Shown here one piece after another: positions 20,237 through 63,024 of a DNA stretch of 64,000 bases (position 1 is its first letter; each line of letters begins with the position of its first letter). A model generated the notes under the pieces. The model was not told where the DNA came from and ran no database searches. It saw only the letters and a list, made by a program, of their open reading frames with translations. This DNA comes from Candidatus Moranbacteria bacterium RIFOXYB1_FULL_43_19 (GTDB lineage Bacteria; Patescibacteriota; Minisyncoccia; Moranbacterales; UBA11712). A program made the position numbers and the translations under genes. Where the stretch lies: positions 1,220 to 65,219 of the forward strand of contig MFSH01000002.1 in NCBI GenBank assembly GCA_001784875.1, in the 5' to 3' direction.

Positions 20237-20238
20237 TG

Positions 20239-23780: not shown

Positions 23781-23790
23781 CTTCACCACT

Positions 23791-26434: not shown

Positions 26435-26451
26435 ACCATAACCATAAAAAA

Positions 26452-28546: not shown

Positions 28547-28550
28547 TAAT

Positions 28551-29648: not shown

Positions 29649-29669
29649 ACAAATTAATTTTCTGAATGC

Positions 29670-30194: not shown

Positions 30195-30980
30195 GTGAAT
30201 AGTACAACTGCGAGAACTGTTTCAAGTTTTATGTATAAAGTAGAATCTATAAAGAAAATTGAAAACAGTTTAAAGGAACTATTTCCCGATGAAACAAGAT
30301 ATATAGGACGACTCTCCGAAGCAATTGCATCTCTTTATGCAAGACAGAAAGAAGTCGCCATCGCAGAAAGCAAGCTTTCCAGAGCTAACGACATTTTTTT
30401 CGGAGGATTTGTAAATTTTTTCAAGCTATTGTGGAAAAATCTTACAAAATCAAATACATTATCTGAATGCCAACAACAATTTTTCGACAAATATATTTCA
30501 TATACTCAGGGGCTTTACGGAGTCTTAAGTGCAACTATACTCTTTATCAAAGAGACAGAAGGTGTAGATAAAAGTAATATTTCAACCGGCACTAGCACAA
30601 AGAAATTTTTAGAGAGTTGTTTGGGCCAAGATATAATTGACGAATCAACATTTAATCTCTTATATCAGACAACAATTATTAGGAGTCTGACATCGGATCA
30701 TATTCAGGATGGTTTGATGACATGGGGCACTGTCAGTTTCAACACAATTGGTCATCGCAAAGACAAGATCATTGAAACCCCGACTGAATTCGCATCCATG
30801 TATACACTTATTATTTGGCCCATGAAGTCTTACGATGAATTAAGGAAAGACACTCAGGCGCAATTAGAAAGATTGCTTTTTACGGATGTTCCTTTGCCAT
30901 CTTTCTTTTGTCCCCATTTTTCACATATTACCCAGGCATATTCGAATTTACTTGCAGGTTTTTCCAATCGTAAAAAGTAA
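30195..30980 (+). CDS. Hypothetical protein (GTG start, or ATG at 30231)
   Basis: 261 aa. It abuts the previous ORF, so the two are probably co-transcribed. Confidence 0.35.
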   Translation: MNSTTARTVSSFMYKVESIKKIENSLKELFPDETRYIGRLSEAIASLYARQKEVAIAESKLSRANDIFFGGFVNFFKLLWKNLTKSNTLSECQQQFFDKYISYTQGLYGVLSATILFIKETEGVDKSNISTGTSTKKFLESCLGQDIIDESTFNLLYQTTIIRSLTSDHIQDGLMTWGTVSFNTIGHRKDKIIETPTEFASMYTLIIWPMKSYDELRKDTQAQLERLLFTDVPLPSFFCPHFSHITQAYSNLLAGFSNRKK

Positions 30981-31065
30981 TACAGGTTTTACACTTGTAG
31001 CTATATTACAGCGGTGAAATCGAAAAAAAATAATAAAAACAGAGATATAACCAACTTAGAAATAA

Positions 31066-31257
31066 ATGACCGAACCTTCAAATGATTTTGTTTTGTATAT
31101 TCAAAAAATGGTTAAGGAGAAGACCGGAAAAGAGCCGACATATCAGGAAGCAAAAGAGGGAGTTGATAATCTGATTGGTTTTTTTGATTTGTTATTGCGA
31201 ATCGATCGTCGAAATAACAGGAGAGAATATAAACAAAACAAACCAATCAAGAAATGA
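31066..31257 (+). CDS. Small hypothetical protein
   Basis: 63-aa ORF, weakly supported. Confidence 0.2.
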   Translation: MTEPSNDFVLYIQKMVKEKTGKEPTYQEAKEGVDNLIGFFDLLLRIDRRNNRREYKQNKPIKK

Positions 31258-31431
31258 AGCTGGATTGTTTGTTTGATCAATCAAAAAACAGCAATTCTAG
31301 CGCTGTTTTTTTTGATTATCCCTTAATTGGTTCCAATTCCCGGACACCCTCGGCCTTTTGTGGCCCAGTATGGCTTCCGGGAAAATACCTTAAGCATGCG
31401 GAGATCTCGCGTCTCCTCGATACTGAAGGCT

Positions 31432-31509
31432 TGGTGCGGGGCCGACGGGACTCGAACCCGCGATCTTCTCCGTGACAGGGAGACGTGATAACCGCTACAC
31501 TACGGCCCC
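31432..31509 (-). tRNA. tRNA-Asp (GTC)
   Basis: Cloverleaf: acceptor GGGGCCG/CGGCCCC, anticodon stem TCTCC/GGAGA with loop CTGTCAC, T-loop TTCGAGT. Confidence 0.8.
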
Positions 31510-31523
31510 AATATTCAGTTTTG

Positions 31524-31597
31524 TAGCGGCGAGTGGACTCGAACCACTGACCCCAGCCTTATGAGTGCTGTGCTCTAACCAGCTGAGCTACGCCGCC
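31524..31597 (-). tRNA. tRNA-Met (CAT) elongator type (could be tRNA-Ile2/lysidine)
   Basis: GGCGGCG...acceptor with a G1-U72 pair, D-loop AGCTGGTTA, anticodon loop CTCATAA, T-loop TTCGAGT. No encoded CCA. Confidence 0.75.
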
Positions 31598-32265
31598 TCG
31601 TTTAAAGCTTCAATCCATCCAAGTATTTGATACAACAGATCGCTGCTTTTTGCAATCCTAATTGACAGAGTGCCGTAATGATGAGAAAAATTTTCGTAGA
31701 ATTTCTTATTTTTCGCTTTTATTAGAATTGGTTTTCTGAACTGACTAGCGGAAACCTTCGTTATTTTAGACCAATATTTTACCACTTCACGTAATCTCGC
31801 TTTGTGAATTTCATTAATATTAACATACATCAAGAATCTTTCCCTTTCAACCTTTAAAGATTTTCTGAACCAATTCATCGCAAACTGAATCGCTGCTGGA
31901 TCAGAATTATGAAATCTGACTCCCGAAGAACTTTTTGAACCCTCTCCCCAATATAAAGCTAATCCGGCAATAAACAATTCCCGTTTTCTCAGCGCATAAA
32001 TATCCTTTCTGGCCTTTCGCAAACATTCTTCAATCCTTTTCCTTTTCTTTTCTTTCTGCAATTTCGCTCCAACCATTCTTCCTTTGTAACTTCCACGAAT
32101 CATCTTAGTATGCAACTTTTGTGTTTGTTCCTCGGTTAACTGAATATCAGAACACCAAAGACTGGCTGAACTTTTTGAAACGTTTAACTTCTCCGCAATT
32201 TCCTTTATACTTAATCCTTTTTTTCTTAAATTACGGGCTAGAAATTGTTCTTTTGATTTTGCCAT
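31588..32265 (-). CDS. HTH-domain protein, possibly a LAGLIDADG-like endonuclease (weak)
   Basis: 225 aa. The N-terminal HTH is KKGLSIKEIAEKLNVSKSSASLW. The block LFIAGLALYWGEGSK is reminiscent of a LAGLIDADG motif. The gene sits between tRNAs, and its 3' end overlaps tRNA-Met by about 10 nt. Confidence 0.35.
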   Translation of the reverse strand: MAKSKEQFLARNLRKKGLSIKEIAEKLNVSKSSASLWCSDIQLTEEQTQKLHTKMIRGSYKGRMVGAKLQKEKKRKRIEECLRKARKDIYALRKRELFIAGLALYWGEGSKSSSGVRFHNSDPAAIQFAMNWFRKSLKVERERFLMYVNINEIHKARLREVVKYWSKITKVSASQFRKPILIKAKNKKFYENFSHHYGTLSIRIAKSSDLLYQILGWIEALNEAA

Positions 32266-32368
32266 ATCGAACTGACGATTATTGTTATATAGGCATTATA
32301 CCATCAGTTCTAGAATATATCAAAAAAACAACCACGCTTTTGCGCTTCGGAATTTTTTGCGGACGTTT

Positions 32369-32443
32369 GTTGCGGGGGTGGGATTTGAACCCACGACCTG
32401 GTGGTTATGAGCCACCCGAGCTACCAGACTGCTCTACCCCGCT
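32369..32443 (-). tRNA. Initiator tRNA-fMet (CAT)
   Basis: Near-identical in pattern to bacterial initiator tRNA: xGCGGGG...GGTGGCTCATAACCACC...TTCAAATCC...CCCCGCA. Positions 1 and 72 are unpaired (A1 x A72). No encoded CCA. Confidence 0.75.
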
Positions 32444-32581
32444 GTATTGCCATGCCATACTATAGCATTTTTGGGCTTTTGTCAATTACTTGACGCAATC
32501 CTATATCTTTCCTAAGATTAAAAGCTGCACCTTAAATCAAAAATAACCGAGAAAACTCGGAAAAAAGGATGGGTCAACCCA

Positions 32582-33061
32582 ATGAATTGGTTTTATTTTT
32601 CTCTTGCCTGCCTGTGTTTCTGGACGCCTACCGGGATTTTCCTTGGCAAGGCAAATGGGGCACACGGTTTTGTCATGACTTTCCATGTCCAAGCCGTCAT
32701 CATGATTATTTTTTCCTTTTTCCTTCAATTCATTGAGCCCCCGAATATGACTCTGGTCACCAAGCCCTCAATGGCGTTTTCCATTGCCAACGGGATCTGC
32801 TCGGGCTTCGCTTATGTATTTTTCATGAAGTCCTTTGAGGTCGCCCCGGGCAAAGTTCCGGAGATAGAGTTTGTCACCGCTCTTTATCCGGTGCTATGCG
32901 TTTTCCTGATTTTCGCTATCCAGCAAATCCGCCCGAGCTGGGTTGATGAGATAGTGAAAATCAGATTCAACCACTTGCTTAGCGCCGTTCTTTTTGCCAG
33001 CGCTTTCGCCAGCTGGTTCTGGCAACCAGAATGGACTGAAAAAGTGAAATCATTTTTCTGA
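32582..33061 (+). CDS. Small integral membrane protein (hypothetical)
   Basis: 159 aa, with 4-5 predicted transmembrane helices. Confidence 0.4.
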   Translation: MNWFYFSLACLCFWTPTGIFLGKANGAHGFVMTFHVQAVIMIIFSFFLQFIEPPNMTLVTKPSMAFSIANGICSGFAYVFFMKSFEVAPGKVPEIEFVTALYPVLCVFLIFAIQQIRPSWVDEIVKIRFNHLLSAVLFASAFASWFWQPEWTEKVKSFF

Positions 33062-35209: not shown

Positions 35210-37000
35210 TTATTTCTTTCTATTCGTATATTTCGTATGCAGCAGTTCCTCCGCTTTTTCGGATCCGGGATGGCCGAGAAATTCTTTATAGATTTTCTTT
35301 AATACTGGGTTTTCGTGGGATTTCCTGATCGGCATCCCTTTATCACGCGCCATGACACCCGCGATGCGTGCTTTGCGAACGGCCGGACCGGTTGGCACCG
35401 GCTGCCCTCCGCCCCCGATGCATCCGTTCGGACAAGCCATCACTTCGACGAAATGATAGTCGCTTTTCCCCTTTTCGATTTCCTCCAAAAGATTCTTTGC
35501 ATTCCGTATTTCATGCACCACCGCCACCCGAAGTTTCATGCCGTCAACGTCAATTTCCGCGCAGCGCGCCCCCGATTCGCCCCGCACCATTTCAAATTCC
35601 ACTTTTCCAAGTTCTGCCCCAGTGATTTTTTCCACCGCCGTCCGGAGAGCCGCTTCCATCACTCCTCCGCTTTGGGCAAAAAGCATTCCTGCTCCGGTCG
35701 AAATTCCCAGTGCCGGGTCGAATTTCCTTTCTTTCAGCTTTTTCGGGTCGATCTTCTTTTTTCGGAGAAGCCTTGCCAGCTCCCGAATAGTGAGCACTAT
35801 ATCCACATCCTGGTGCCCACTTGCATTTATTTCTTCTCTCTGCGCTTCATATTTTTTTGAAGTGCAGGGCATGATCGAGACTGAAACGATCTGCTCCGGA
35901 TTTATTTTTTCCTTTTGAGTCCAGTAGGTTTTCACGAGCGGCGCGAGCATCTGTTGGGGCGATTTGCAAGTTGAAAGATTGGGAATGAATTCGGGATAAT
36001 ATTTTTCAACATATAAAACCCAAGACGGACAACAACTGGTGAACATCGGGAACGGCCCCCTGTTCTTGATGCGCCTGATGAGCTCATGGGCTTCTTCGAT
36101 GATCGTGAGATCCGCTCCAAGAACTGTGTCAAAAACTTTGTCGCACCCGATCTCCTTGAGAGCCGCGACCAGTTTCCCCTCCCAAAAAGTGCCGGGGGCC
36201 TCTCCAAATTCTTCGCCGATTGTGAAACGAACCGAGGGAGCCGTCTGGACAACGACCATTTTTTGGGGATCTTTGAGGGCTTTTTCAAATTTTTCGATAT
36301 CGTCTTTTTCGGTGATTGCCGCTGTCGGACAAACTGCGCTGCACTGTCCGCAGAAAATGCAGTCAAGCGGAATTTCAAAAGGTGTACCGACATTCGTTTT
36401 TGAACTGCGATAATTCATCCCATAGGCTTCGACTGTTTGCATATCTCGACAAATCCGGATGCAGCGCCGGCATTCGATGCAGTATTCGCTATCCCGCGCA
36501 ATGCACGGATTTTTTTCGTCTATCGCCACATGCGACCAGTTGTCTTTGAGTAAATCCAGCTCATTTTCGCTTCTTAGCTCTTTTCGTCGCGGCACAAATT
36601 TGAATTCATCGACTTTATACTCTTCCGCCAGATTCTGAAGCTCGCATCGCCCGTTTCTTTTGCAGGACGCGCATTTTCCGGCGTGATCCGCCCAAAGAAG
36701 CTCGAGATTCACTTTCCGCGCCCTTTTCACATCTGCTGTTTCTGTTTTGATTTCCATCCCCTTGCATACTTTTTGGGTGCAGGAAGATACCAAGCTTTTC
36801 GATTGGTTTGTTTCTACAAGGCACATCCGGCAAGCGCCTTCGCTCGGCAGCAAATCCGGGTGGGCACAAAGAGTGGGAATGCGAATTCCATTTCTTTTGC
36901 AAACAGAAAGAATCGGTTCGCCTTCGTCAGCCTGATATGATTTATTGTTGATTTTTATCTGCATGCCTTTTTTATAAATAATTCTAGTCTTTGGTAACAA
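35210..37000 (-). CDS. hydA: [FeFe]-hydrogenase catalytic subunit (HydA-like; 2Fe-2S + 4Fe-4S ferredoxin domains + H-cluster)
   Basis: 596 aa. The N-terminal 2Fe-2S fold has C...C..C. The H-cluster motifs are present: TSCCPSW (L1), MPCTSKKYE (L2) and EVMACPNGCIGGGGQP (L3). Confidence 0.85.
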   Translation of the reverse strand: MLPKTRIIYKKGMQIKINNKSYQADEGEPILSVCKRNGIRIPTLCAHPDLLPSEGACRMCLVETNQSKSLVSSCTQKVCKGMEIKTETADVKRARKVNLELLWADHAGKCASCKRNGRCELQNLAEEYKVDEFKFVPRRKELRSENELDLLKDNWSHVAIDEKNPCIARDSEYCIECRRCIRICRDMQTVEAYGMNYRSSKTNVGTPFEIPLDCIFCGQCSAVCPTAAITEKDDIEKFEKALKDPQKMVVVQTAPSVRFTIGEEFGEAPGTFWEGKLVAALKEIGCDKVFDTVLGADLTIIEEAHELIRRIKNRGPFPMFTSCCPSWVLYVEKYYPEFIPNLSTCKSPQQMLAPLVKTYWTQKEKINPEQIVSVSIMPCTSKKYEAQREEINASGHQDVDIVLTIRELARLLRKKKIDPKKLKERKFDPALGISTGAGMLFAQSGGVMEAALRTAVEKITGAELGKVEFEMVRGESGARCAEIDVDGMKLRVAVVHEIRNAKNLLEEIEKGKSDYHFVEVMACPNGCIGGGGQPVPTGPAVRKARIAGVMARDKGMPIRKSHENPVLKKIYKEFLGHPGSEKAEELLHTKYTNRKK

Positions 37001-37124
37001 GGTTATTGGCAGTGAGTCTGGTCATTGGTTATGAGTCATCGGATTTTTTTAATAACCAAAGACTAAAGACCTGTCCCACAGCTAATGACTTTGTTACTAA
37101 TGACCCATTCTTGATTCGTAGAGA
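36972..37124. repeat. Intergenic ~130-bp repeat family, copy 1 (between hydA and hydB)
   Basis: GTCTTTGGTAACAAGGTTATTGGCAGTGAGTCTGGTCATTGGTTATGAGTCAT...AAGACCTGTCCCACAGCTAATGAC.... It is homologous to the copies at 38352, 41700, 52025 and 62245. Confidence 0.7.
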
Positions 37125-38351
37125 TCACCCGAATATTTCTTTTCCAAACATCTTCATCGCATCGCTCCATGCAATCGCCGCGAAATTTCCCAGTGGACAG
37201 AAAGTCGTATTGGATAAAGTCCACAAAATATCTTCAATATTTTCTTTATCCCGCTTGAGAATTTCATTTTTTTTGATCCGTTTGGCAATTTCCCAAAGAC
37301 GGTAGGTTCCCTCCCGACACGGTACGCATTTTCCGCATGACTCCCGATGAAAAAAATCCGCCCAGGAGAAAAGCAAATTTTTGAGGTCAGTGCTCTTGTC
37401 AGCCACAAATATTGATCCGCACCCGAGATTATATTCGCCGGCGCCATACGCCAAAGGCTGATCAAGTTTTCCAGCCGTTACCAGTCGCCCCGACGCTCCT
37501 CCGATTTGAGCAAACAAAAAATCTTTTCCGCTCGCCATTCCCCCGCCGTATAAAGAGTTGTATATCAGTTCCTGGGCCGTAGTCCCGAGAGGAGCTTCGA
37601 AAATTCCTTGCTTTTTCACTGCTCCTTCAAGAACAAAGAGTTTTGTTCCCGGTGAACCGCTCACGCCTATTTGTGAATAGGTTTTAGCTCCCCGCTTTAT
37701 AATAAAGGGAACATTCGCCAGAGTTTCCGCGTTGTTCACGATCGTAGGTTTTCCAAAAAGTCCCGCTACCGGCGGATAAGGGGGTTTCAAGCGCGGCTCA
37801 CCCCGATTTCCCTCAACGCTGTTTATGAGAGCTGTCTCTTCGCCGCAGATATAAGCCCCGGCTCCCTGAAAAATATCCACCTCAATATCAATAGCGCTTC
37901 CCAACATAGAGCGTCCGATAAATTCTTTTCCCCGGGCCTGCTCAAGCGCGATTTCCAGGATTTCGTTTTGTTTTCGATAGTATCCGTTTATATAAATAAA
38001 GGCTTTTTTCGCCCCAATGGCTGTCGCGCCGATGAGAAGCCCTTCAATGATCTGGTGCGGATTTTTTTCAGCAATTGTCCGGTCCTTATACACTCCCGGC
38101 TCCGACTCGTCAAGATTGCAAATGAAATATTTTTCTTTGGCTGGAGTTTTTGCCGCCAAATCCCATTTATCGCCCGTTGGAAAACCGGCCCCGCCTCGGC
38201 CACGAAGACCGGATTTTTTCACTTCCTCAATTATTTTTTCCGGCGTCATTTCCCGAATGGCTTTGCGCAAAGATTCGTAACCGCCGGTTTTTATATAGCT
38301 GTCGATTCTGAGCGGATCTATTTTATTCCAGTTTTTTGTTAGTATTTGCAT
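37125..38351 (-). CDS. hydB: NADH-binding flavoprotein subunit of bifurcating hydrogenase (NuoF/HndC/HydB-like)
   Basis: 408 aa. It has the NuoF FMN/NADH region GLRGRGGAGFPTG and the 4Fe-4S motif ESCGKCVPCREG. Confidence 0.8.
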   Translation of the reverse strand: MQILTKNWNKIDPLRIDSYIKTGGYESLRKAIREMTPEKIIEEVKKSGLRGRGGAGFPTGDKWDLAAKTPAKEKYFICNLDESEPGVYKDRTIAEKNPHQIIEGLLIGATAIGAKKAFIYINGYYRKQNEILEIALEQARGKEFIGRSMLGSAIDIEVDIFQGAGAYICGEETALINSVEGNRGEPRLKPPYPPVAGLFGKPTIVNNAETLANVPFIIKRGAKTYSQIGVSGSPGTKLFVLEGAVKKQGIFEAPLGTTAQELIYNSLYGGGMASGKDFLFAQIGGASGRLVTAGKLDQPLAYGAGEYNLGCGSIFVADKSTDLKNLLFSWADFFHRESCGKCVPCREGTYRLWEIAKRIKKNEILKRDKENIEDILWTLSNTTFCPLGNFAAIAWSDAMKMFGKEIFG

Positions 38352-38479
38352 TTATAATATTTCATTGGTTACATTAGGCATAGGCTGTAAGACAAGTCAT
38401 TAGTCACTGGTTATTAGAAAGATACTATTGACTAAAGACCAACAACCAAACCCACTGCCAATAACCTTGTTACCAAAGA
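38352..38479. repeat. Intergenic repeat family, copy 2 (inverted relative to copy 1; between hydB and hydC)
   Basis: It ends ...CCCACTGCCAATAACCTTGTTACCAAAGAC, the reverse complement of the start of copy 1. Confidence 0.7.
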
Positions 38480-38920
38480 CTATAAGTAACTTTGTATGAT
38501 ATCATCCACCATCTCCGGTTTCACTCGCTCAAAAATCTGTCCTTCCACTTCAACCACCGGTCCCCGGTCGCAAAGCCCCAGGCAGCTTATGTATTCCAAT
38601 TTATATTTCGGGTGAGCGTCATTTCCAGCCTCAAGACCAAGAAGCATTTCAATTTGACGGGCTACTTTGGCTGAATCTTTCGAGAGACATGGCCCCCCGG
38701 AGCAGATTCTGATATTTTTTTTGGTTTCTTTTTTGGTCCGGATTTCATTGAAAAAACTGGCGAAGCTGTATATTCGCGCCAGAGGCAACGAGAAATAGTC
38801 GGCAATTTTTTCACATTCTTTTTCCCCGATGTATTTGTTTTCTTTTTGAGCGGCTTTGAGCGCCCGGAGCAAATTTTCCGGCTTTGGCTCAATTTGGACA
38901 AGAATCTTTTGAAGAGACAT
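38480..38920 (-). CDS. hydC: NuoE-like thioredoxin-fold 2Fe-2S subunit (HndA/HydC-like)
   Basis: 146 aa with the cysteine pattern CSGGPC...CLGLCDRGP. Confidence 0.75.
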   Translation of the reverse strand: MSLQKILVQIEPKPENLLRALKAAQKENKYIGEKECEKIADYFSLPLARIYSFASFFNEIRTKKETKKNIRICSGGPCLSKDSAKVARQIEMLLGLEAGNDAHPKYKLEYISCLGLCDRGPVVEVEGQIFERVKPEMVDDIIQSYL

Positions 38921-39090
38921 ACATGTATTTTAACATAATTGCGGAAAAGGGAGAAGTTTTGTAAAATAAACTTGAAGAATTGTGAATTTGGAATTTTGAA
39001 TTGAGAACGGGAATCTAGAACGAGAAATTCAAAATTCAATATTCCCATTTATAATTCTCAATTCACAGTTCTAAATTCTAATTTAAAAAT

Positions 39091-39636
39091 ATGATCGAAA
39101 ACAACAACACGGAGACAATTGCGACAACTTTTCCTGTCGCAACTTACCAAACCAAAGACCTCGCCTGGACGCTTATTATGATTCTTGCCGCCGTCGTTCT
39201 TCCTGCCCTTCTGGCCCATACGCCGCAAAACCAGTGGGTCACGGGCACAATCGTGAACGCCCTGCTATTTTTAGCCGTTTGGCGCGTGGGATTCGTAAAC
39301 GCAGCTTTCGTCGCCACTCTGCCGTCGTCAATCGCTCTCATGCGCGGTCTGCTCCCCGCGCCGATGGCGGTATTGATTCCGTTTATCATCTTGTCTAATA
39401 TAATTCTCGTCGCCGCTTTTTACACCTTGAAAAAATACCCGCTTGCGGGTATTGTCTCGGCATCTTTTCTAAAATTCTTTTTTCTTTTTGCGATTACTTC
39501 TTATCTCATAAAAGTCGCTTCGCCCCTTCTTGTCATGATGCACTGGCCGCAGCTTTTCACAGCTCTCGCCGGCGGATTGATTGCAATTGGAATCGTCAAA
39601 ATAACCAATTCACTTGTTCCTAAAGTCCGACTTTAG
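39091..39636 (+). CDS. Integral membrane protein (hypothetical; possibly an ECF-type S component)
   Basis: 181 aa with about 5 transmembrane helices. The last 7 codons are encoded by a REP palindrome. Confidence 0.4.
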   Translation: MIENNNTETIATTFPVATYQTKDLAWTLIMILAAVVLPALLAHTPQNQWVTGTIVNALLFLAVWRVGFVNAAFVATLPSSIALMRGLLPAPMAVLIPFIILSNIILVAAFYTLKKYPLAGIVSASFLKFFFLFAITSYLIKVASPLLVMMHWPQLFTALAGGLIAIGIVKITNSLVPKVRL

Positions 39637-39639
39637 GAA
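39617..39639. repeat. REP-like 23-bp palindrome, copy a (TTCCTAAAGTCCGACTTTAGGAA)
   Basis: Perfect 10-bp arms. It is one of five copies clustered around the RAYT gene. Confidence 0.75.
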
Positions 39640-39644
39640 TAGCT

Positions 39645-40310
39645 TTACTCAAAAACCATATCCTTGTCTTGTTTTCTCATTTGAAAGTCGGCAATATTTT
39701 CTGCCGCGTATTCTTCTAGTTCCTTGGGATTTCTAAAATCTCCTCTAAATTCTTCATCTCTTGCTAAAGTATCTCTGCTTTTTCCAATGTGATGCGAAAA
39801 ACTGCACCAGGAATAACTTTTCGCCGCACAAACTTTATGCACTTCACTATTGCAACTCACGTAAACTGAAAATCTCGAAAGTGAACCCTCATTTTTTATC
39901 TGCGAAGATTTGAATTTACCCTGAAATAAGGCGCCGTTTCGCTTATTCTTCTCGTTGAAATATTTCGTATAACTTGTGCCTAGTTTTTGCAAAAATTTTT
40001 CAATTCCTTTTTCGACTTTTTGCTTCAAAATCATATGATAGTGATTTGACATAAGGCAATAGCTGACAATATCCACAAGATATTCTCTTTTCCTAAAGTT
40101 CGACTTTAGGAAGTGATTGAGGTTGGCATTTTTGACGCATTTCTTGTAGTCGCGCCACTTTATCATCGCTCCGTCTTCCATATCATTCAGAAGATTCATC
40201 GAGATAAGAAACCGAGAAAAATCTCTGTCATCCAAAAAAACATTTCGCTTGTCCACGCCGCGATTATAGATGTGATAGTATTCATTTTCTACGAGAGGCG
40301 TTTTTCTCAT
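39645..40310 (-). CDS. IS200/IS605-family HuH tyrosine transposase, REP-associated (RAYT-like)
   Basis: 221 aa. It has the HuH motif MSNHYHMIL and downstream tyrosines (GTSYTKYF / FSVYVSCN). The N-terminal YYHIYNRG resembles RAYT N-termini. It is surrounded by REP palindromes. Confidence 0.7.
   Translation of the reverse strand: MRKTPLVENEYYHIYNRGVDKRNVFLDDRDFSRFLISMNLLNDMEDGAMIKWRDYKKCVKNANLNHFLKSNFRKREYLVDIVSYCLMSNHYHMILKQKVEKGIEKFLQKLGTSYTKYFNEKNKRNGALFQGKFKSSQIKNEGSLSRFSVYVSCNSEVHKVCAAKSYSWCSFSHHIGKSRDTLARDEEFRGDFRNPKELEEYAAENIADFQMRKQDKDMVFE
40089..40111. repeat. REP-like palindrome, copy b (inside the RAYT coding sequence)
   Basis: TTCCTAAAGTTCGACTTTAGGAA, in frame, encodes FLKSNFRK of the RAYT. 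Confidence 0.7.
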
Positions 40311-40325
40311 CGTATTTCATCTCTC

Positions 40326-40346
40326 TCCTAAAGTTCGACTTTAGGA
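40326..40346. repeat. REP-like palindrome, copy c (slightly degenerate)
   Basis: TCCTAAAGTTCGACTTTAGGA, immediately upstream of the RAYT start. Confidence 0.65.
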
Positions 40347-40402
40347 TAACAGATTTTTTGAGATTATACAAAAAACGAGCTGAAAATGCCCGTTTTTCTC
40401 TA

Positions 40403-40425
40403 TTCCTAAAGTCGAACTTTAGGAA
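40403..40425. repeat. REP-like palindrome, copy d
   Basis: TTCCTAAAGTCGAACTTTAGGAA. Confidence 0.75.
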
Positions 40426-40445
40426 GGGTTAACTTTAGCAAAACT

Positions 40446-41195
40446 CTATTTCGAGCACAAATACGCTTTGCCAAGAGCGGCTTTGTATGGAAATACACTT
40501 CCGCAACTGCTTCCGGGAGAATAAAAAAAAGTGCCAGTTCCGCCAATGCCATTAATGTTGCATCCAGAATATCCACACCAATCAGACGTAGAACCATAAC
40601 AAACCCCCCACTCACCCAAGTCTTTTGCCACATTAAATCCGCTGTCACAGAGCCCCTGTGTCCCTATAACAACAGAAGCGGGACATACAGGAGTTGCCAT
40701 TTTAGCATCGTACAAACAAGTGGCTGTATATGAAAAACTTCCTCCCGCCGCCACCGCCGCTTCGATGGCGCGCTGGGTGGGATCCCCGGTGGTTTGGGTT
40801 CCGACAGCGCGGACGGCTTTGACGGTTGAGATATCTGCGTCAGCGATGATAACTTTCCCATTTTCATCGAGAAGATAAAGATCACAGCCAAATCCCGTGG
40901 GACAAGGTATTTTTCCTCCCGCAGTAAAGTCATCGAAAACACTGATAATTGTGGTTCCAGTCGCGTTAGCTATCTTGTTGAGCGCCCATTCTACTCCGGA
41001 GTCGGCTTTGAAGAAGGAGCTGACGGAGCTTTTGGTTTTGGAGCTCATTTGCTGTTCCATGACCGTCACATAGGAAAGGCTCACTACCATGGAAAGAACT
41101 ACGAAAAGGAGAATGGTGGTGAGAAGGAGGGCGGAACCTTTGCCTACTGGCGGGCAAGCTTTTTTTGATTGTTGACGCTTTGTTTTGGTTTTCAT
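40446..41195 (-). CDS. Cys-rich secreted/membrane-anchored hypothetical protein
   Basis: 249 aa. It has an N-terminal transmembrane/signal anchor and many Cys and Gly residues. It is flanked on both sides by REP copies d and e. Confidence 0.4.
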   Translation of the reverse strand: MKTKTKRQQSKKACPPVGKGSALLLTTILLFVVLSMVVSLSYVTVMEQQMSSKTKSSVSSFFKADSGVEWALNKIANATGTTIISVFDDFTAGGKIPCPTGFGCDLYLLDENGKVIIADADISTVKAVRAVGTQTTGDPTQRAIEAAVAAGGSFSYTATCLYDAKMATPVCPASVVIGTQGLCDSGFNVAKDLGEWGVCYGSTSDWCGYSGCNINGIGGTGTFFYSPGSSCGSVFPYKAALGKAYLCSK

Positions 41196-41290
41196 TGGTT
41201 TTTTTTGTGAAGAATTACTTTTATACCTTCAGAATACCCCCCCCCCGACGCTTGGTGTCAAATCGAAAAATGCGGATAAACGTGGTATCA

Positions 41291-41313
41291 TTCCTAAAGT
41301 TCGACTTTAGGAA
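41291..41313. repeat. REP-like palindrome, copy e
   Basis: TTCCTAAAGTTCGACTTTAGGAA. Confidence 0.75.
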
Positions 41314-41369
41314 TAAAAAAAACAGCCTCGACGTGACGTCGGAGCTGTTTTTTATATAGAATATCAATA

Positions 41370-41699: not shown

Positions 41700-41861
41700 A
41701 TACAGACTATAGAAATTCCGGTGCAATGTCAAGGTTATTTGCTGTGAGTTACAAAGCTGTGGGCAATGGGACTGGTTGTGAGTCATAAGTTGTGGGACTC
41801 TTGTCCCAACGACCCACTGCTAATGACCTGACCCACAACTCACTGCCTTGTTACCAATAAC
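41700..41861. repeat. Intergenic repeat family, copy 3 (divergent)
   Basis: ...AAAGCTGTGGGCAATGGGACTGGTTGTGAGTCATAAGTTGTGGG...CACTGCCTTGTTACCAATAACC. Confidence 0.6.
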
Positions 41862-43097
41862 CTATTCTAAAACCGCCTTCAACTCTATTTCTTGCCCATC
41901 CCGCATGACTTTCAGGCTGATTTCCTCCCCCGGCTTATGCTTTGAGACAAGGCGCGCCAGATTATTTTCCGCGTTCACTTCTTCTCCGTTCACGGACAGA
42001 ATCACATCCTGAATTTTGAGCCCCGCCTTTTCGGCCGCGCTTCCCGCGATGATCGCCAAACCTTGCTGTCCGCTGGGAGAATATACCAGAGCTCCCCGGT
42101 CTGGACTGCCGAAAAGAGCGGCTGACTCGCTAGTTAGGGAAAAATAATAGGCCCCCAGAGTTCCCCTTTTCACCGATCCGCTTGAAATATAATGGTTCAT
42201 AAGCTCCTGGATCAAGTCTGAAGAAACAATGAAATATTGTTTTTGGCCGGATATTTTTCGAACACCCAGAATTCCAATCACGCTCCCGCTATAATTGGAC
42301 ACTGCTCCGCCGACCACTTTATCGTCTCCCTCTTCATTCATGTCAAAATCGGCAATATAAACACCTTGCAGCTTGTCCGAGAGCGGCAGTGCACCCGCCA
42401 GCGAAAAATCAGAATCATATTGGCTCACGAGGCCGGCTTTATAAATAGCCTGGAAATTGTTTCCGCTTCTCCCGATAGCAACGGCTTTCATTCCAACTTT
42501 CATGTCTTCGGATGCGATAAAGGAAGCCACCGGAAGACTGGGAGCGCCGTCAATCTTGAGAAGGACAAGATTTGTGAAACTGTCTATCGCCACCAGCCGG
42601 GCGTCAAAGAACTTGTCTTTTTGGATAAAGATACGATATTTCGACTTTTCATCTAAAATAGCTTCCCTGTGGGCGAGAATCAGCCCGTCAGCGGTGATAA
42701 CCAGTCCGCTCCCGTATTTCACAAAATCCGCGTCTTTCATTTTTCCCGGATCTTTACTTTCGTCTTTCAGGGATAAAATCTCAACCACGCTCGAAGCCGA
42801 CTCGTTTGAATATCGTGAAATTGTCTGGTCCTCGGAAACTGTCACTTGCTCGGTTTTGTTCACCACGACAATGTCTTGGGTGGCTTTTTTGAAAAAATCG
42901 TATTTTCCCGCCCATTTCACAGTCGCAAGATACGGAAATATATAGCGGTCAATGACAATCAAGCTGGCTCCGGAAAGAAAAAATACAAGCAAAACAAAAA
43001 AAACGATCCTCACAATTTTTCGGATCCAGTTTTTCCTTATTCTGTTTTTTCCTTCTTTTCCAGTCATGAAGTTAAACAGCCGGATACCATTTCGCAC
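41862..43097 (-). CDS. Trypsin-like (S1C/HtrA-like) serine protease with a C-terminal PDZ domain, membrane-anchored
   Basis: 411 aa with an N-terminal transmembrane segment and a protease core. The PDZ sequence is GLAIIAGSAAEKAGLKIQDVILSVNGEEV. The GNSGG box is divergent (SNYSGS). Confidence 0.6.
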   Translation of the reverse strand: MRNGIRLFNFMTGKEGKNRIRKNWIRKIVRIVFFVLLVFFLSGASLIVIDRYIFPYLATVKWAGKYDFFKKATQDIVVVNKTEQVTVSEDQTISRYSNESASSVVEILSLKDESKDPGKMKDADFVKYGSGLVITADGLILAHREAILDEKSKYRIFIQKDKFFDARLVAIDSFTNLVLLKIDGAPSLPVASFIASEDMKVGMKAVAIGRSGNNFQAIYKAGLVSQYDSDFSLAGALPLSDKLQGVYIADFDMNEEGDDKVVGGAVSNYSGSVIGILGVRKISGQKQYFIVSSDLIQELMNHYISSGSVKRGTLGAYYFSLTSESAALFGSPDRGALVYSPSGQQGLAIIAGSAAEKAGLKIQDVILSVNGEEVNAENNLARLVSKHKPGEEISLKVMRDGQEIELKAVLE

Positions 43098-43878
43098 TGA
43101 GAAGAATGAGCGAAGCTGTTCCGGCCAGAAACAGTATGTTGAAAGCCAGCCTTTTTGCCGTCATTTTGTCCAAGAAATAATTCCGGATAATTTCCCATCC
43201 AGAATAAAAGATTATAAGGGCAGCCACGCCGGTTGTCAAGTATCCAAAAGGCCAGGAACTTTGAAACCAGATTGAAACCGCTATCAGGTAGGAAAGAAAA
43301 ACCCCATAGAAAACACGTTGGCTGCGGTTCATCTTGAGTTCATTGACGATAAACAAGGCGTAAGCAATGGGAAAAGTGATAATCGCGAAAAGAATCATGA
43401 TTATCCAGGCTGGTGAGGCAATATTGAGATACCAGCCATAACCGGCCGTAAACCAGCAAAAAAGGGCGGAGAGTGCCGCCAGATTGGACATCGCCTTGGC
43501 GGTCAGATCTTTTTCATATTTTCCGAGCCGATACGCGCCGAGAACCGCCAGATAGAAAACTCCGGCCGAAAGAACCAGGAAGGCTTTGGCCTGGGAGGGT
43601 GAATCAATAAGCGGCAAAAGAAGGACAGAGCCGACAAAAAGAAAAGCGAGAATAATGAAGTGGAAATATTTTCGGGAAATCCACTTTATGGAAATAAGAA
43701 GAACCAAAAGAAAAATTATCCCATTCCAGAGAAAATTGGCCGGATAGCTAAAGGCCATCCAGAGCGCCCCGAAATACAAAAGGGTGAGAAACAAAATACT
43801 AAACTCCCAAAGCAAAGTCGTAATGTGTAATATATAATCTGTAATTGGGATAGGATTACAAAAAGTCCTAATTACCAA
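43072..43878 (-). CDS. Polytopic membrane protein (hypothetical)
   Basis: 268 aa with about 8 transmembrane helices. It overlaps the protease gene start by 26 nt. Confidence 0.4.
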   Translation of the reverse strand: MVIRTFCNPIPITDYILHITTLLWEFSILFLTLLYFGALWMAFSYPANFLWNGIIFLLVLLISIKWISRKYFHFIILAFLFVGSVLLLPLIDSPSQAKAFLVLSAGVFYLAVLGAYRLGKYEKDLTAKAMSNLAALSALFCWFTAGYGWYLNIASPAWIIMILFAIITFPIAYALFIVNELKMNRSQRVFYGVFLSYLIAVSIWFQSSWPFGYLTTGVAALIIFYSGWEIIRNYFLDKMTAKRLAFNILFLAGTASLILLSAKWYPAV

Positions 43879-52024: not shown

Positions 52025-52166
52025 ATATTTTGTTTATTGTAACAAGGCTGTGGGCAGTGGGTCTGGTTATCGGTCATAAGTTACTGGATTTATTTTATAA
52101 TGACCCAAGACCAAAAACTAAAGACCTGTCCCACAGCCAATGACCATTGTAACCAACGACCAAAAC
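52025..52166. repeat. Intergenic repeat family, copy 4
   Basis: TTGTAACAAGGCTGTGGGCAGTGGGTCTGGTTATCGGTCATAAGTTACTGG...AAAGACCTGTCCCACAGCCAATGACCATTGTAAC. Confidence 0.7.
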
Positions 52167-53285
52167 CTAGACCTCCCTCTTCACTATATAATCCGCGATT
52201 CCGACCAGGAATTCCCTGGTAACTTTTTCAAAGTCAGATTTTTCAATGGCTTTTTTGCCCCTTTCGACATATTTTTTCGCCAAAGCTTGGGAATAGTCGA
52301 GGGAGCCAGTTTCCCGTATCGTTTGCCTGAAGCTTTCTATGCCACTTTCAGAAACATTTTTATTCCCTAAAAGTTTTTTTATCAGCCTTTTCTGCTCCGC
52401 ATTTCCATTCTCGAGCGCTTTGGCAATGAGAAGGGTCTGTTTCCCTTCCCGAAGATCGGAACAGACCGGCTTGCCCAGTTTTTTCTCATCTCCGAAAGCT
52501 CCCAGGATGTCGTCCTGAATTTGGAAAGCAATTCCCACTGGAACGGCGTATTCGCTCAAGACTTTCAGCATTTTTTCATCCGCGCCGGCGAGAAGCGCAC
52601 CGAGATGTAGCGGGCCTTCGACCGTATACTTGGCAGTTTTGTTCCGATGGACCTCGAGAATTTCTTTTTCGCTTGCCTGGCCTTTGGCTTCGAGCATCAC
52701 GTCCAAAATTTCCCCGGAAACAGTGTTTACGACAATTTCCTGAAGTTTGGAAAGGGCCTTCTGCTTTCTCTCTGGCGCAAAGCGGGAATTGAAGATTATG
52801 TCGTTTCCAAAGGCCGCCGCCATGTCCCCAACTACAATCGCCATCGAATCCCCGAAATGCTTCGGGTCAACTTTTTTATAAAATCTTTTCGCCAGATTTT
52901 CATATTTTTTGTGGATCGCCTGGACTCCATGGCGGAAATCGTCCCGGTCAATTATATCATCGTGGATGAGAAGAAAAATATGAGTGAGCTCGATGCTCAT
53001 TGAGGCTTCGATGATTTTTTCAAAGTCCTTGCCGTTTGCCGCCCGGTATCCCCAATACATAAAACTGGCCCGCACCCGTTTCCCGCCGGCGAGCAACATA
53101 TCGCGAATGCTTTTCACCGCGTCCCGCGCCGATGGCCCAACCTCGTGCATTTCCTGAAGCTTTTTGGTGAAATATTGGGCAAGTTTCTGGTCAAGCGCTT
53201 TTTTGTAGTTTTGCAGTTCGATTTTGGCGTCCATATAATCTAAATATGCTTTATATAAAGCAATTTGTTGGATTTTATTTGACAA
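52167..53285 (-). CDS. trans-Polyprenyl diphosphate synthase (IspA/GGPPS family) with an N-terminal extension
   Basis: FARM (LIHDDIID) and SARM (FQIQDDILG) motifs are present. Confidence 0.75.
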   Translation of the reverse strand: MSNKIQQIALYKAYLDYMDAKIELQNYKKALDQKLAQYFTKKLQEMHEVGPSARDAVKSIRDMLLAGGKRVRASFMYWGYRAANGKDFEKIIEASMSIELTHIFLLIHDDIIDRDDFRHGVQAIHKKYENLAKRFYKKVDPKHFGDSMAIVVGDMAAAFGNDIIFNSRFAPERKQKALSKLQEIVVNTVSGEILDVMLEAKGQASEKEILEVHRNKTAKYTVEGPLHLGALLAGADEKMLKVLSEYAVPVGIAFQIQDDILGAFGDEKKLGKPVCSDLREGKQTLLIAKALENGNAEQKRLIKKLLGNKNVSESGIESFRQTIRETGSLDYSQALAKKYVERGKKAIEKSDFEKVTREFLVGIADYIVKREV

Positions 53286-62244: not shown

Positions 62245-62367
62245 AAAATAAAATTAGGTCATTGGTTACATTGGTTATCGGCAGTGAGTCAGGTCATAGG
62301 TCGTTGGATTTATTGCGACCAAAGACTAATGACTTGTCTCACGGCTAATGACCTAGTTACCTATGAC
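62245..62367. repeat. Intergenic repeat family, copy 5
   Basis: GGTCATTGGTTACATTGGTTATCGGCAGTGAGTCAGGTCATAGGTCGTTGG...CCAAAGACTAATGACTTGTCTCACGGCTAATGACC. Confidence 0.65.
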
Positions 62368-63024
62368 CTATCTATAGATCCACACTTTCGCCGACATTCC
62401 GTTTTTGAGTTCCGGATACTGGCTGAGATTGAAGCGAATTTTCACGTTGAATTCTTTGGTCGGTCTTTGTGATGATATATCGAAGGTCAGGGCTGATTCT
62501 CTCGAACTTGCTCCTATTTCATCGACGATACCTTGATATTCTTTGGACTCGAAAGCATCAACCGTGAAAACAACGCGCTGTCCGACTTTTATTCGTGTTA
62601 GACCCTTGTTTTCTTCGACTCTCGCGACTACCCGAAGGTTGGCCGGATTTATCATTGTCACCACCGGATCACTTGGATTGGCAATTTTTCCGATTTCCTT
62701 GGCGGCAAAGATAACCAGACCTTCTTCTTTTGTCTTGACCAGTTCCTCGCCTACTTTCGCCACAACAAAATTTTTGGGCACGATTTGTCCTTCCTGGACA
62801 AAGATTTCCCTCAAAATACCGGGATTTGGGGCCGATAGGATTATCTCGGGCGCGGAAACCTCAGCGTCTTCATCATAAACCCGGCTAGCCGAGACTCTCA
62901 AATACAGAACTGCGACGATTATCCCGGCAAGGAATAGAACAGCCGCCGCAACTATAAGCAGCTGCCTGTTAGAAAATTTTTCATTTTCCGAATCCCGTTG
63001 GAATTGCTCTTTTGATTCTCCCAT
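62368..63024 (-). CDS. HlyD-family membrane-fusion protein (EmrA-like)
   Basis: 218 aa with an N-terminal transmembrane anchor and a biotin-lipoyl-like/beta-barrel region. Confidence 0.55.
   Translation of the reverse strand: MGESKEQFQRDSENEKFSNRQLLIVAAAVLFLAGIIVAVLYLRVSASRVYDEDAEVSAPEIILSAPNPGILREIFVQEGQIVPKNFVVAKVGEELVKTKEEGLVIFAAKEIGKIANPSDPVVTMINPANLRVVARVEENKGLTRIKVGQRVVFTVDAFESKEYQGIVDEIGASSRESALTFDISSQRPTKEFNVKIRFNLSQYPELKNGMSAKVWIYR

Follow-up and report, generated by a model that had tools for sequence, protein, structure and literature searches.

A palindromic intergenic repeat family, probably a MITE-like insertion element, at hydrogenase and other gene junctions in a Candidatus Moranbacteria clade

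The [FeFe]-hydrogenase operon studied here lies on the minus strand of a 64-kb stretch of Candidatus Moranbacteria DNA (the window), and the names hydC, hydB and hydA given to its genes by a first-pass annotation made from the sequence agree with the Pfam domains of their products:

38480..38920, minus strand: hydC, NuoE-like 2Fe-2S subunit (PF01257, 2Fe-2S_thioredx)
37125..38351, minus strand: hydB, NuoF-like flavoprotein subunit (PF01512 Complex1_51K, PF10589 NADH_4Fe-4S)
35210..36964, minus strand: hydA, [FeFe]-hydrogenase catalytic subunit (PF02906 Fe_hyd_lg_C, PF02256 Fe_hyd_SSU)

Both gaps of the operon are occupied by copies of a repeat that the same annotation had placed at five intergenic positions. 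An nhmmer profile built from the copies recovered all five at the reported start positions and nothing else in the window at E<=1. All lie between co-directional minus-strand genes, and each is an imperfect palindrome of 118-141 bp (118-162 bp across all 15 copies described below). The copies and two adjoining features are as follows:

36984..37108, plus strand: c1, palindromic element in the hydB|hydA gap (nhmmer 117.5 bits)
37109..37124, minus strand: a short leftover that separates c1 from the hydB stop codon (TGA), reading TCTCTACGAATCAAGAA in the direction of transcription
38357..38483, minus strand: c2, palindromic element between hydC and hydB, in the orientation opposite to that of c1
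41706..41732, minus strand: promoter-like TTGACA-15 nt-TATAGT (hexamers and spacer read by eye), directly after c3 and upstream of rplU
41737..41865, plus strand (weakly determined): c3, between the stop codon of an htrA-like protease gene and the promoter-like site for rplU
52029..52169, plus strand (weakly determined): c4, behind the polyprenyl synthetase stop codon; uppS begins about 97 nt further on
62254..62371, plus strand: c5, between the stop codon of an HlyD-like gene and the start codon of an MFS gene 10 nt away

Because the elements are palindromes, the orientations of c3 and c4 are weakly determined (orientation scores against c1 of 0.67 vs 0.61 and 0.72 vs 0.61, respectively); the 3' arm of c4 looks shortened. 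The window also holds a RAYT-like gene with flanking palindromes of its own.

Pairwise identity among the copies is 60-80%, and the words that they have in common are degenerate as a result. Thus, of the words proposed as shared, GGTAACAAGG occurs exactly in three copies (0.11 expected by chance) rather than in all five, and the 25-mer GGCAGTGAGTCTGGTCATTGGTTAT was found in c1 only, even when three mismatches were allowed. Copies from other contigs gave independent support: with plain blastn, a copy from contig L013 matched four window copies (E, 1e-26 to 2e-11) and a copy from L014 matched three (E, 1e-23 to 1e-11). Ten further copies were found on eight related contigs (one each in L011, L013, L014, L015, L020 and L022 and two each in L019 and L023), bringing the family to 15 copies in nine contig sets, at junctions that partly differ between genomes; plasmids gave no match. 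The family is therefore short (<300 bp), non-coding, multi-copy and dispersed, as MITEs are.

The partial self-complementarity of the two halves, read by the first-pass annotation as MITE- or BIME-like, was borne out by folding, and the family is a structured, palindromic, intergenic one. Every copy gives a single long imperfect hairpin with a continuous stem, which stretches from the upstream stop codon to the downstream start codon. The transcribed-strand RNAs of c1 to c5 fold at -34 to -47 kcal/mol (z-scores relative to dinucleotide shuffles, -2.6 to -7.3); c1 folds better as the plus strand (-49.1 kcal/mol) than as the transcribed strand (-33.6 kcal/mol), and c5 gives the best hairpin of the five (-55.7/-45.1 kcal/mol). 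Terminal inverted repeats are present in the form of a palindrome over the whole length, with consensus ends TAG(G)TCNTTGGTAACAAGG ... CCTTGTTACCAATGAC(C)(TA). In an alignment of 11 copies, 90.2% of cells are paired, vs 22-48% when the partners are slid; both sides have changed in 12 of 39 pairs, a number reached by 9 of 500 shuffles, and the covariation score of 0.252 was reached by 4 of 500. A search of the element against Rfam 15 gave no match other than spurious miRNA-precursor scores (29 bits vs a threshold of 110), and an Rfam search of the whole window returned nothing at the element sites.

At the end that faces the upstream gene, the element is nearly always fused to the stop codon. 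The sequence TAG+(G)TC stands there in 12 of the 15 copies, TAG being the stop codon of the upstream gene. The first three transcribed-strand bases of c2 are the hydC stop codon (TAG, 38480-38482), and the TAG stop codons of the htrA-like protease (41862-41864), the polyprenyl synthetase (52167-52169) and the HlyD-like protein (62368-62370) are fused to the ends of c3, c4 and c5, respectively, c5 reading TAG-GTCATAGG...CCAATGACC-TAA on the transcribed strand. TAG accounts for 26% of stop codons in the window, against which the 8 of 10 copies counted in an earlier tally give a binomial p of 5e-4. The far end is CTA in 5 of the 15 copies, each of which gives GAC(C)-TAA or GAC(C)-TAG in the transcript; a downstream TA is present in 5 of 15, plus two near misses, so that any TA duplication is incomplete.

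We then set the window beside its relatives, in which both filled and empty orthologous sites were seen at four junctions between genomes with about 80-87% protein identity. At hydC|hydB, L017 and L019 have a 4-nt GTGA overlap in which the hydB GTG start codon overlaps the hydC stop codon. These insertion-free relatives begin HydB with VNILTKNW; in the window, where the hydB ATG lies 10 nt beyond the end of c2, the protein begins with MQILTKNW. The same junction is filled by c2 in the window and L011 and by two unrelated hairpins in L016 and L018; the sequence of the empty sites, CTGTGAAT, lacks a TA at the stop codon. At hydB|hydA, L016 has a 4-nt ATGA overlap and L017 and L018 have a gap of 18-39 nt, whereas c1 fills the site in the window, another hairpin does so in L011, and L019 carries a family copy that aligns better in the opposite orientation. 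Since relatives have 4-nt overlaps or unrelated hairpins at the same junctions, we conclude that c1 and c2 are insertions. The leftover beside c1 matches the 5' end of hairpins belonging to another family (TAGT(C/T)TCTACGAAC...), and its words also follow the hydB stop codon in L019 and open the L016 hydC|hydB hairpin, which suggests a nested or successive insertion.

The history of c2 is less simple. It is 96% identical (range, 95-98%) to the L011 copy at the same junction, vs about 81% (range, 68-90%) for the flanking coding DNA, making it the most conserved stretch of the whole hyd region between the two; a neutral insertion of old date would not lead one to expect this. c2 is shared by the window and L011, yet it is missing from their nearest HydB relatives, L016 and L017, in a neighbor-joining tree of that single protein. 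Vertical descent, repeated insertion and lateral transfer would each fit this distribution.

The other junctions have no connection with hydrogenase (htrA|rplU, ispB|uppS, HlyD|MFS and trx|trxB). The htrA|rplU junction is filled in the window, L011 and L019 but empty in L017 and L018, in which the -35 hexamer follows the stop codon at a distance of only 3-4 nt; with the junctions of these five side by side, the rplU promoter-like site keeps its position and bounds the insertion site. At ispB|uppS, the site is empty in L021 and L022, which have a TAA stop codon, L020 and L023 carry a family copy with TAG, and the window carries c4. Over the junctions, a TAA or TGA stop codon in empty relatives has become TAG in filled ones at two of three. 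Same-junction copies may be strongly diverged (46 bits for c3 vs the second L019 copy) or better aligned in the opposite orientation (c4 vs the first L023 copy, identity of 0.60 in the same and 0.72 in the opposite orientation), and other genomes hold copies at junctions that are empty or otherwise filled in the window.

Taken together, these results suggest that the repeat is probably a non-coding, whole-length palindromic insertion element, MITE-like, that has spread over the gene junctions of one Candidatus Moranbacteria clade (CPR/Patescibacteria). With moderate confidence, we propose that TA dinucleotides are its insertion target and are duplicated in the process. In a tightly packed genome, the TA that survives selection would usually be that of a TAA or TAG stop codon; TA plus the first G of the element would then make a TAG stop codon, and past the element the second TA would be followed by the original third base of the codon. 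No transposase with matching ends was found in the window by Pfam search, which likewise gave no DDE/IS630-type gene there.

The family is one more case of a well-known class of bacterial "junk" repeats (MITE/ERIC/Correia-like) and probably no dedicated hydrogenase control device, and its behavior is closest to that of the ERIC, Correia and RUP elements. The ERIC (IRU) elements of enterobacteria are imperfect palindromes of about 125 bp that occur in either orientation in transcribed operon gaps, fold into long stem-loops within the mRNA and vary in their presence at orthologous sites. The Moranbacteria element resembles them in all these respects: size, palindromy, orientation, operon gaps, predicted stem-loop and variable presence. 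It differs in its CPR host, in arms made of degenerate 7-nt words and in the fusion of its end to the upstream stop codon, and an ERIC consensus gave no nhmmer match to the family profile. The Correia elements of Neisseria (CREE/NEMIS) and the RUP elements of Streptococcus pneumoniae are TA-targeting MITEs of 100-155 bp with terminal inverted repeats; they insert near genes and are transcribed together with them, and RNase III cleaves the hairpins that they form. A TA duplication of this kind is consistent with the terminal TA(G) and with the GAC(C)-TAA/TAG of intact far ends, although the duplication is only partly seen here. A Correia consensus including the 26-bp inverted repeats gave no nhmmer match either; its best local alignment score was 7, under the shuffle mean of 9.8, and the resemblance TATAGT...TAACAA fell below shuffles as well. 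Like MIRUs of Mycobacterium, which are intercistronic insertions that end at the upstream stop codon and adjoin the downstream start codon, the element ends in the upstream stop codon; unlike MIRUs, which are tandem direct repeats carrying small ORFs, it is a palindromic hairpin.

Repeats built of heptamers provide a further comparison. The family shares 7-nt periodicity and intergenic position with the cyanobacterial STRR repeats and the TAACTGA repeats of Beggiatoaceae, cyanobacteria and Bacteroidetes, and its word GGTCATT is a rotation of the STRR2 unit, TTGGTCA. STRR and TAACTGA repeats are direct tandem arrays, whereas the degenerate heptamers here form the two complementary arms of one dispersed element. 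Heptameric repeats lie near start and stop codons and have stop triplets within the repeat unit (PMC4679880), as the element does. The lag-7 autocorrelation of the family is 0.388, vs 0.258 (standard deviation, 0.017) when shuffled; values are 0.50-0.58 in the AT-rich hairpin families and 0.26 in coding DNA. Within the family, TRF called a period-7 array in c5 only, and it called many in neighboring AT-rich hairpins. The family is one of several 7-nt-periodic hairpin families that fill junctions in this clade. Junction hairpins, in a hand-listed set, make up about 3% of the 64-kb window, and gaps of at least 55 nt occur at 32 of 48 same-strand junctions (two thirds). Start codons here are preceded by AT-rich leaders without obvious Shine-Dalgarno motifs.

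An alternative, which we consider unlikely, is that the copies around hydB are under selection as an RNA element acting in cis on the hydrogenase operon. Their hairpins, or a c2:c1 duplex that loops out hydB, would serve as processing stems at which an RNase III-type enzyme divides the hydCBA transcript into segments of separate stability, in the manner of the stems that flank 16S and 23S rRNA. As the first-pass annotation had claimed, c1 and c2 are in opposite orientation on either side of hydB (identity of 0.77 in opposite and 0.67 in same orientation), sharing an exact word of 30 nt inverted vs 11 nt direct and 85% complementarity over 60 nt, 1.39 kb apart. Its claim of two long complementary segments in the mRNA is sound on thermodynamic grounds, a 107-bp duplex being possible at -139.7 kcal/mol, vs -69.8 kcal/mol for the two local hairpins. 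A selected element would also suit the high conservation of c2, the five differences from L011, all of which leave the L011 copy better paired (-46.7 vs -36.2 kcal/mol), the compensatory changes that maintain pairing, and the presence of hairpins of unrelated sequence at the same junctions in several lineages. However, the bracket occurs in this species only: the same pair was seen in none of the five relatives examined, L011 lacking c1, L019 lacking c2, and L016 and L017 having overlaps or tiny gaps at these junctions. The element also lies beside unrelated genes, at a transcription-unit end and before a promoter-like site or a canonical terminator; the divergence and reversed orientation of the other same-junction copies are no better accommodated, and the local hairpin would form co-transcriptionally, 1.3 kb before its partner exists. 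As the pair is missing in relatives and the element is dispersed beside unrelated genes, c1 and c2 are two separate insertions, and the bracket is probably nothing special, an accident of the two rather than a purposeful arrangement or a conserved device.

It is also rather improbable that the element is REPIN-like, its long hairpin being the substrate that a Y1 (HUH) transposase recognizes and moves in single-stranded form. REP/REPIN sequences with RAYT are likewise dispersed intergenic hairpins of similar size and shape, a clean duplication at both ends is missing here, as this mode of movement would have it, and a Y1_Tnp gene (PF01797, E 1e-7) lies at 39645-40310, 1.2 kb from hydC. The best NCBIfam match of this gene is REP_Tyr_transpos (RAYT-like), but at 36 bits vs a cut-off of 80. 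It has its own flanking 23-nt palindrome, TTCCTAAAGTTCGACTTTAGGAA, all five copies of which lie within 39617-41313, and a palindrome that co-varies with it, ACTTGGAAGYCGAACTTCCAAGT, accompanies the homologue in L015; a family copy adjoins neither gene, and L011 has c2 without such a gene at the syntenic place. The arms are heptamer-periodic rather than self-palindromic REPs, and the strand-specific G-U bias that would favor a single-strand substrate failed, the better-folding strand agreeing with element orientation in 8 of 11 copies and with transcription in 8 of 11. We therefore rejected membership of a REP-RAYT system, the repeat flanking the RAYT-like gene being a different 23-nt palindrome, as well as an inverted pair of REP units, since the arms are not self-complementary and each copy is one stem.

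We disfavor, as very unlikely, the reading that the hairpins were born in place, by heptamer slippage beside stop codons and palindrome formation, with the similarity of copies being convergent. The strong 7-nt periodicity, the many period-7 tandem arrays in gaps and the whole extra words that distinguish copies speak for it, as does the fact that heptanucleotide repeats are the commonest long simple repeats in bacteria, according to Mrazek (2007) as cited in PMC4679880. However, 15 copies at unrelated loci of several genomes align over about 120 nt (E down to 1e-35) and share a word order (GGTAACAAGG, GGCNGTGRG, GACYTGTCYCAC); slippage may lengthen arms after insertion but cannot produce a common word order.

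That the elements are transcription terminators or attenuators between genes is highly unlikely. Stable stem-loops directly 3' of stop codons, and c3 at the end of a transcription unit, would suit such a role, but no T-run follows the stems and the terminator scan does not call them, on which grounds we rejected intrinsic-terminator identity. The genome has canonical terminators with a GC-rich stem and a T-run, such as that at 41320-41350 after rplU. In L014, the copy itself precedes a GC-rich stem with a T-run, read by eye as a terminator. Only 10-22 nt lie between the ends of c1, c2 and c5 and the genes that follow them in what look like operons. Finally, a DNA switch in which recombination between c1 and c2 inverts or deletes hydB has their long inverted match in its favor but is extremely improbable, as six loci from independent assemblies (sampled from 24 contigs carrying identical HydB) are co-linear and 99.9-100% identical, inversion would disrupt the operon, and relatives do not keep the pair.

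If the copies are insertion elements, as we favor, then once co-transcribed each would form a 40-50-bp imperfect stem-loop running from the stop codon to about 5-20 nt before the next start codon and would break the translational coupling present in relatives with overlapping genes. By analogy, and with low confidence, the stem-loop may thus uncouple translation; with equally low confidence, the element may, after ERIC, Correia and REP, act as a processing or 3'-end-protection site that alters the relative stability of operon segments. A broader and doubtful proposal is that these are mobile elements targeting the TA of stop codons and still crossing species, which give new TAG codons and split overlapping genes and some of which have been adopted as mRNA punctuation; its leading case would be c2, 96% identical between two genomes whose genes are about 81% identical. 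If that were true, the 107-bp duplex bracketing hydB would resemble the processing stems around rRNA genes, and the arrangement would be an unreported kind of genome and transcript organization in CPR bacteria, a group usually portrayed as streamlined.

Members of the CPR/Patescibacteria have small genomes densely packed with genes, and here elements have repeatedly split overlapping genes of the hydrogenase operon and of other core operons. The element load differs sharply among close relatives, which makes it a marker of recent genome dynamics, and of gene flow, within a lineage that has not been cultivated. The same operon with and without a hairpin provides natural constructs for questions of translational coupling and mRNA decay. 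Gene callers should be used with caution at these junctions, where the element supplies or alters stop codons, C-termini and start codons.

The first-pass annotation had described five related copies of a repeat in intergenic gaps, and this was borne out by a search with a profile built from the aligned copies, which found exactly five members in the 64-kb window and nothing further at E<=1.

Family copies in the window (c1 to c5, located with the profile) and the gene between c1 and c2
36984-37108, c1
38357-38483, c2
41737-41865, c3
52029-52169, c4
62254-62371, c5
37125-38351, minus strand, hydB (NuoF-like)

Repeat finding returned a five-member direct family together with an inverted pair at 36979-37038 and 38429-38488 (60 nt, 85% complementary), and copies from unrelated contigs matched the window copies by blastn with E values of 1e-26 to 2e-11; the family is therefore independent of our alignment. 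The long words said to be common to all copies turned out to be exact in c1 only; one shared word, GGTAACAAGG, occurs exactly in three copies (0.11 expected) and not in all five. Pairwise identity among the copies is 60 to 80%.

Folding upheld the proposed self-complementarity, since every copy forms a single long imperfect hairpin, with RNA energies on the transcribed (minus) strand of -33.6, -36.2, -46.8, -47.3 and -45.1 kcal/mol and z-scores of -2.6 to -7.3 against dinucleotide shuffles. In an 11-copy alignment that included copies from contigs of relatives (L numbers), standard pairs made up 90.2% of cells, compared with 22 to 48% when the partners were slid by 1 to 3 columns; both-side changes were found in 12 of 39 pairs, a count reached by 9 of 500 shuffles, and the covariation score of 0.252 was reached by 4 of 500. 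We concluded from these three measures that pairing is maintained in the family, whether by direct selection or by palindrome copying and repair. Because the structure is a palindrome, the covariation test is unaffected by the orientation chosen for each copy. The arms consist of degenerate 7-nt words (GGTCATT, GGTTATC and others), giving a lag-7 autocorrelation of 0.388, versus 0.258 (SD 0.017) in shuffled sequence and 0.26 in coding DNA.

By pairwise identity, the copies fall into two orientation classes relative to transcription (c1, c3, c4, c5, L013 and L019b versus c2, L011, L014, L015 and L019a). With this orientation, the better-folding strand agrees with the element in 8 of 11 copies and with transcription also in 8 of 11, and we dropped a strand-specific G-U bias of the kind expected of a single-stranded RNA or DNA substrate; the counts of G-U versus A-C (39 versus 12 for RNAalifold pairs, 75 versus 42 by arm-to-arm alignment) are not usable, because they were obtained with c3 and c4 oriented by folding energy, which is circular. 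A design with stop codons in all three frames is not supported for this family, as the frames close only after 12 to 118 nt, similar to shuffles, and a terminator scan showed them not to be terminator-like.

The orthologous loci of relatives, retrieved via HydB and UppS homologues, revealed the same junctions with and without an element. The operon encodes HydC (2Fe-2S, NuoE-like), HydB and HydA ([FeFe]-hydrogenase), and in L017 and L019 hydC and hydB overlap by 4 nt (...CTGTGAATATTCTC; hydC stop TGA within the hydB start GTG). This junction is filled by c2 in the window, by a copy in L011 and, in exactly the same place, by an unrelated hairpin in each of L016 and L018; all four filled junctions start with TAG directly after the last Leu codon. 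Between hydB and hydA there is an ATGA overlap in L016, a gap of 18 nt in L017 and of 39 nt in L018, a 77-nt hairpin of TCAATGA words in L011, and in the window a 17-nt leftover of another family followed by c1. L019 has the family of that leftover, a GC-rich hairpin and a family copy, which aligns slightly better with c1 in the opposite orientation (0.72) than in the same one (0.69). The htrA-rplU junction has only 3 to 4 nt from the stop to a conserved TTGACA in L017 and L018, a family copy in the window (c3) and L019, and a different hairpin in L011. Between ispB and uppS, L021 and L022 have a TAA stop and no element, and the window (c4), L020 and L023 have an element and a TAG stop, c4 and the L023 copy aligning at 0.72 in opposite and 0.60 in the same orientation. 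Further copies lie between 173aa and trx in L023 and between trx and trxB in L022; in the window these two junctions are 11 nt long or carry an AAATCCT hairpin. With a total of 15 copies in nine contig sets, the family behaves as an element that is dispersed by mobility or duplication and not as a motif tied to one operon.

The element ends, anchored on the GGTAAC word, suggest how it may be inserted. Of the 15 copies, 12 have TAG+(G)TC at the end next to the upstream gene, which uses this TAG as its stop codon. Among all stop codons in the window, TAG makes up 26%, and for 8 of 10 copies, as counted earlier, the binomial p was 5e-4. The TAA or TGA stop of empty relatives is replaced by TAG in the filled ones at two of three junctions. 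TAG is found at the gene-side end in both orientation classes and therefore tracks the gene, not the orientation of the element; both consensus ends carry TAG, and we rejected a TAG confined to the element's 5' flank, as for a Y1-transposase target. On the far side, 5 of the 15 copies have CTA and two more nearly do; in all five (c5, L015, L019b, L023b and c1) the transcript reads GAC(C)-TAA or -TAG. Correia elements, RUP and IS630/Tc1-derived MITEs insert into TA with duplication of the dinucleotide, and the simplest reading is that this family would do likewise. In packed genomes, the target surviving selection would be the TA of a TAA or TAG stop codon; TA plus the element's G would give TAG, and the duplicated TA with the old third base would reappear behind the element. 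This reading has its weak points: about half of the copies lack the downstream TA, there is no TA at the stop of the empty hydC-hydB sites, and the 64-kb window has no transposase with matching TAGGTCATTGGTAACAAGG-type ends.

The family is undescribed but its kind is familiar: it is an intergenic palindromic element of the MITE/ERIC/Correia-like type, with two less usual traits, 7-nt-periodic arms and ends fused to stop codons. We found no similarity to Correia or ERIC, no Rfam match at the copies, and nothing relevant when the literature was searched for repeats of this sort in CPR genomes, a lineage in which this repeat load is not expected. A plasmid collection and viral contigs gave no match. 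Public collections scanned with a 24- to 34-base signature gave only one true match among species-representative genomes and three in metagenomes. The negatives of these signature scans say little about abundance, because the metagenome scan did not return L004 (JGI 3300025152), a contig of the source population that carries c2; the metagenome collection is incomplete for this population.

The inverted pair c1 and c2, in gaps of 160 and 128 nt on either side of hydB (within 36972-38479), had been proposed to give the hyd mRNA two long complementary segments. Thermodynamically this is correct: the c2:c1 RNA duplex has 107 bp and -139.7 kcal/mol, is twice as stable as both local hairpins combined, and resembles rRNA processing stems. 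Three points argue against a purposeful arrangement. Each hairpin can fold once transcribed, and among the relatives compared the pair exists only in the window's species. There is also no evidence of the suggested DNA inversion, since six loci from independent assemblies, drawn from 24 contigs with identical HydB, are co-linear and 99.9 to 100% identical. The repeat observation is confirmed and its interpretation partly supported; we regard the hydB bracket as incidental. An identical HydB is encoded in the groundwater CPR/Patescibacteria genome of Candidatus Moranbacteria bacterium RIFOXYD1_FULL_44_12 (GCA_001784775.1).

Copy c2 is 95 to 98% identical to the L011 copy at the same junction, whereas flanking coding DNA is 68 to 90% identical; the peak of identity does not extend beyond the element. 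L011 is better paired at all five differences (-46.7 versus -36.2 kcal/mol). A neighbor-joining tree of HydB (a single protein, with short branches) groups the window with L016 and L011 with L017, both sisters lacking c2. Copies at other shared junctions have diverged strongly or align better in the opposite orientation. The alternatives are thus an unusual constraint on c2 and its recent acquisition in both lineages, by hot-spot reinsertion or lateral transfer.

The one consequence of insertion that we could show is at the level of the genes: those that overlap in relatives are set apart in the window by a 120-nt stem-loop, and stop codons and C termini differ, as does even hydB's second codon (MQ... 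in the window, VN... in relatives with the overlap). Copies c1, c2 and c5, within apparent operons, are presumably cotranscribed; c3 comes last in a transcription unit, ahead of the rplU promoter-like site, and the L014 copy precedes a GC-rich stem and T-run that we took for a canonical terminator. On the model of ERIC, Correia and REP elements, we infer that the element would affect translational coupling and segmental mRNA stability or processing. Leaders before most start codons are AT rich with no obvious Shine-Dalgarno motif (e.g., 36965-36990, 38352-38365 and 62245-62256; ATATTATAAATG, TTTTATTTTATG and AAAAAAGGCATG), which suggests initiation without reliance on Shine-Dalgarno pairing in this host. 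Upstream of rplU, a TTGACA/TATAGT-like pair (41706-41732), whose 15-nt spacer is unusually short, keeps its position in five genomes (the window, L011, L017, L018 and L019).

Other hairpins also occupy junctions in the window.

Junction hairpins of other families in the window
2134-2216, 47262-47396 and 50140-50271, AAATCCT/GGATTTA hairpins
38960-39090, 49035-49155 and 51135-51226, GAATTTT hairpins
4013-4114, 7438-7539 and 56466-56590, TTTTAGA hairpins
6221-6336, 43770-43870 and 47850-47929, further hairpins

These hairpins have a lag-7 autocorrelation of 0.50 to 0.58, a stronger periodicity than that of the c1-c5 family. They represent at least four further families (AAATCCT, GAATTTT, TTTTAGA and GCGAAT/TACGAA words), all 7-nt periodic, and most begin at the upstream stop codon, the type of stop depending on the family (TGA-AATCC, TAA-AATCT). 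At about a dozen junctions between same-strand genes, the main stem begins -3 to +5 nt from the upstream stop and ends 2 to 20 nt, sometimes more, ahead of the next start codon, a pattern seen also in L011, L013, L015, L018 and L019; L017 is compact (4.7% intergenic DNA). Hairpins at most junctions are wholly different between genomes of about 80% nucleotide identity. An AAATCCT-type copy lies at 350-477 in L015, and a GC-richer family (CCTGYCCGAAA...GCAGGCGGGCGAA) is common to the window (8206-8488) and L019 (11240-11350, nested within another junction hairpin); the L020 family copy also contains a small nested GC-rich hairpin (about 940-985).

A Y1 transposase gene lies nearby (39645-40310, minus strand), IS200/RAYT-like by PF01797 and with REP_Tyr_transpos as its best NCBIfam match (36 bits, below the cutoff). 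It is surrounded by five copies of the 23-nt palindrome TTCCTAAAGTYCGACTTTAGGAA (39617-41313, nowhere else in the window), one of them (40090-40112) inside the coding sequence. At the syntenic position, L011 has neither this gene nor the neighboring PilX_N gene. The homologous gene of L015 (9945-10586, within 9920-10636) is flanked by a different, covarying palindrome, ACTTGGAAGYCGAACTTCCAAGT, with one copy again within the coding region and at a similar relative position, which looks like transposase-repeat coevolution with a conserved internal site. Neither palindrome resembles the 125-nt family. We rejected a link of the family to this gene, which appears to be a separate system.

A LOOT RNA (RF03000, 64.9 bits, 25869-26003) comes directly after the gene of a large serine recombinase (24481-25875). 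Both lie in a block (about 14800-33000) of DNA methylases, a GmrSD/HNH gene and large unknown ORFs adjoining tRNA-Asp/Met genes, which looks like an integrated island because its flanking genes (cupin, S16, KhpA, TrmD) lie near hydA in L018 and L019. The stretches 23029-23790, 53235-54237 and 54550-55070 have no called ORF of >=70 aa, their sole Rfam match being a tRNA-Glu (53779-53850). A Trp-repressor-family gene (11038-11463) is flanked by two occurrences of the 27-nt palindromic TAGTACAGTATACTGTATTACTGTACT (10982-11031 and 11468-11517), likely an operator pair.
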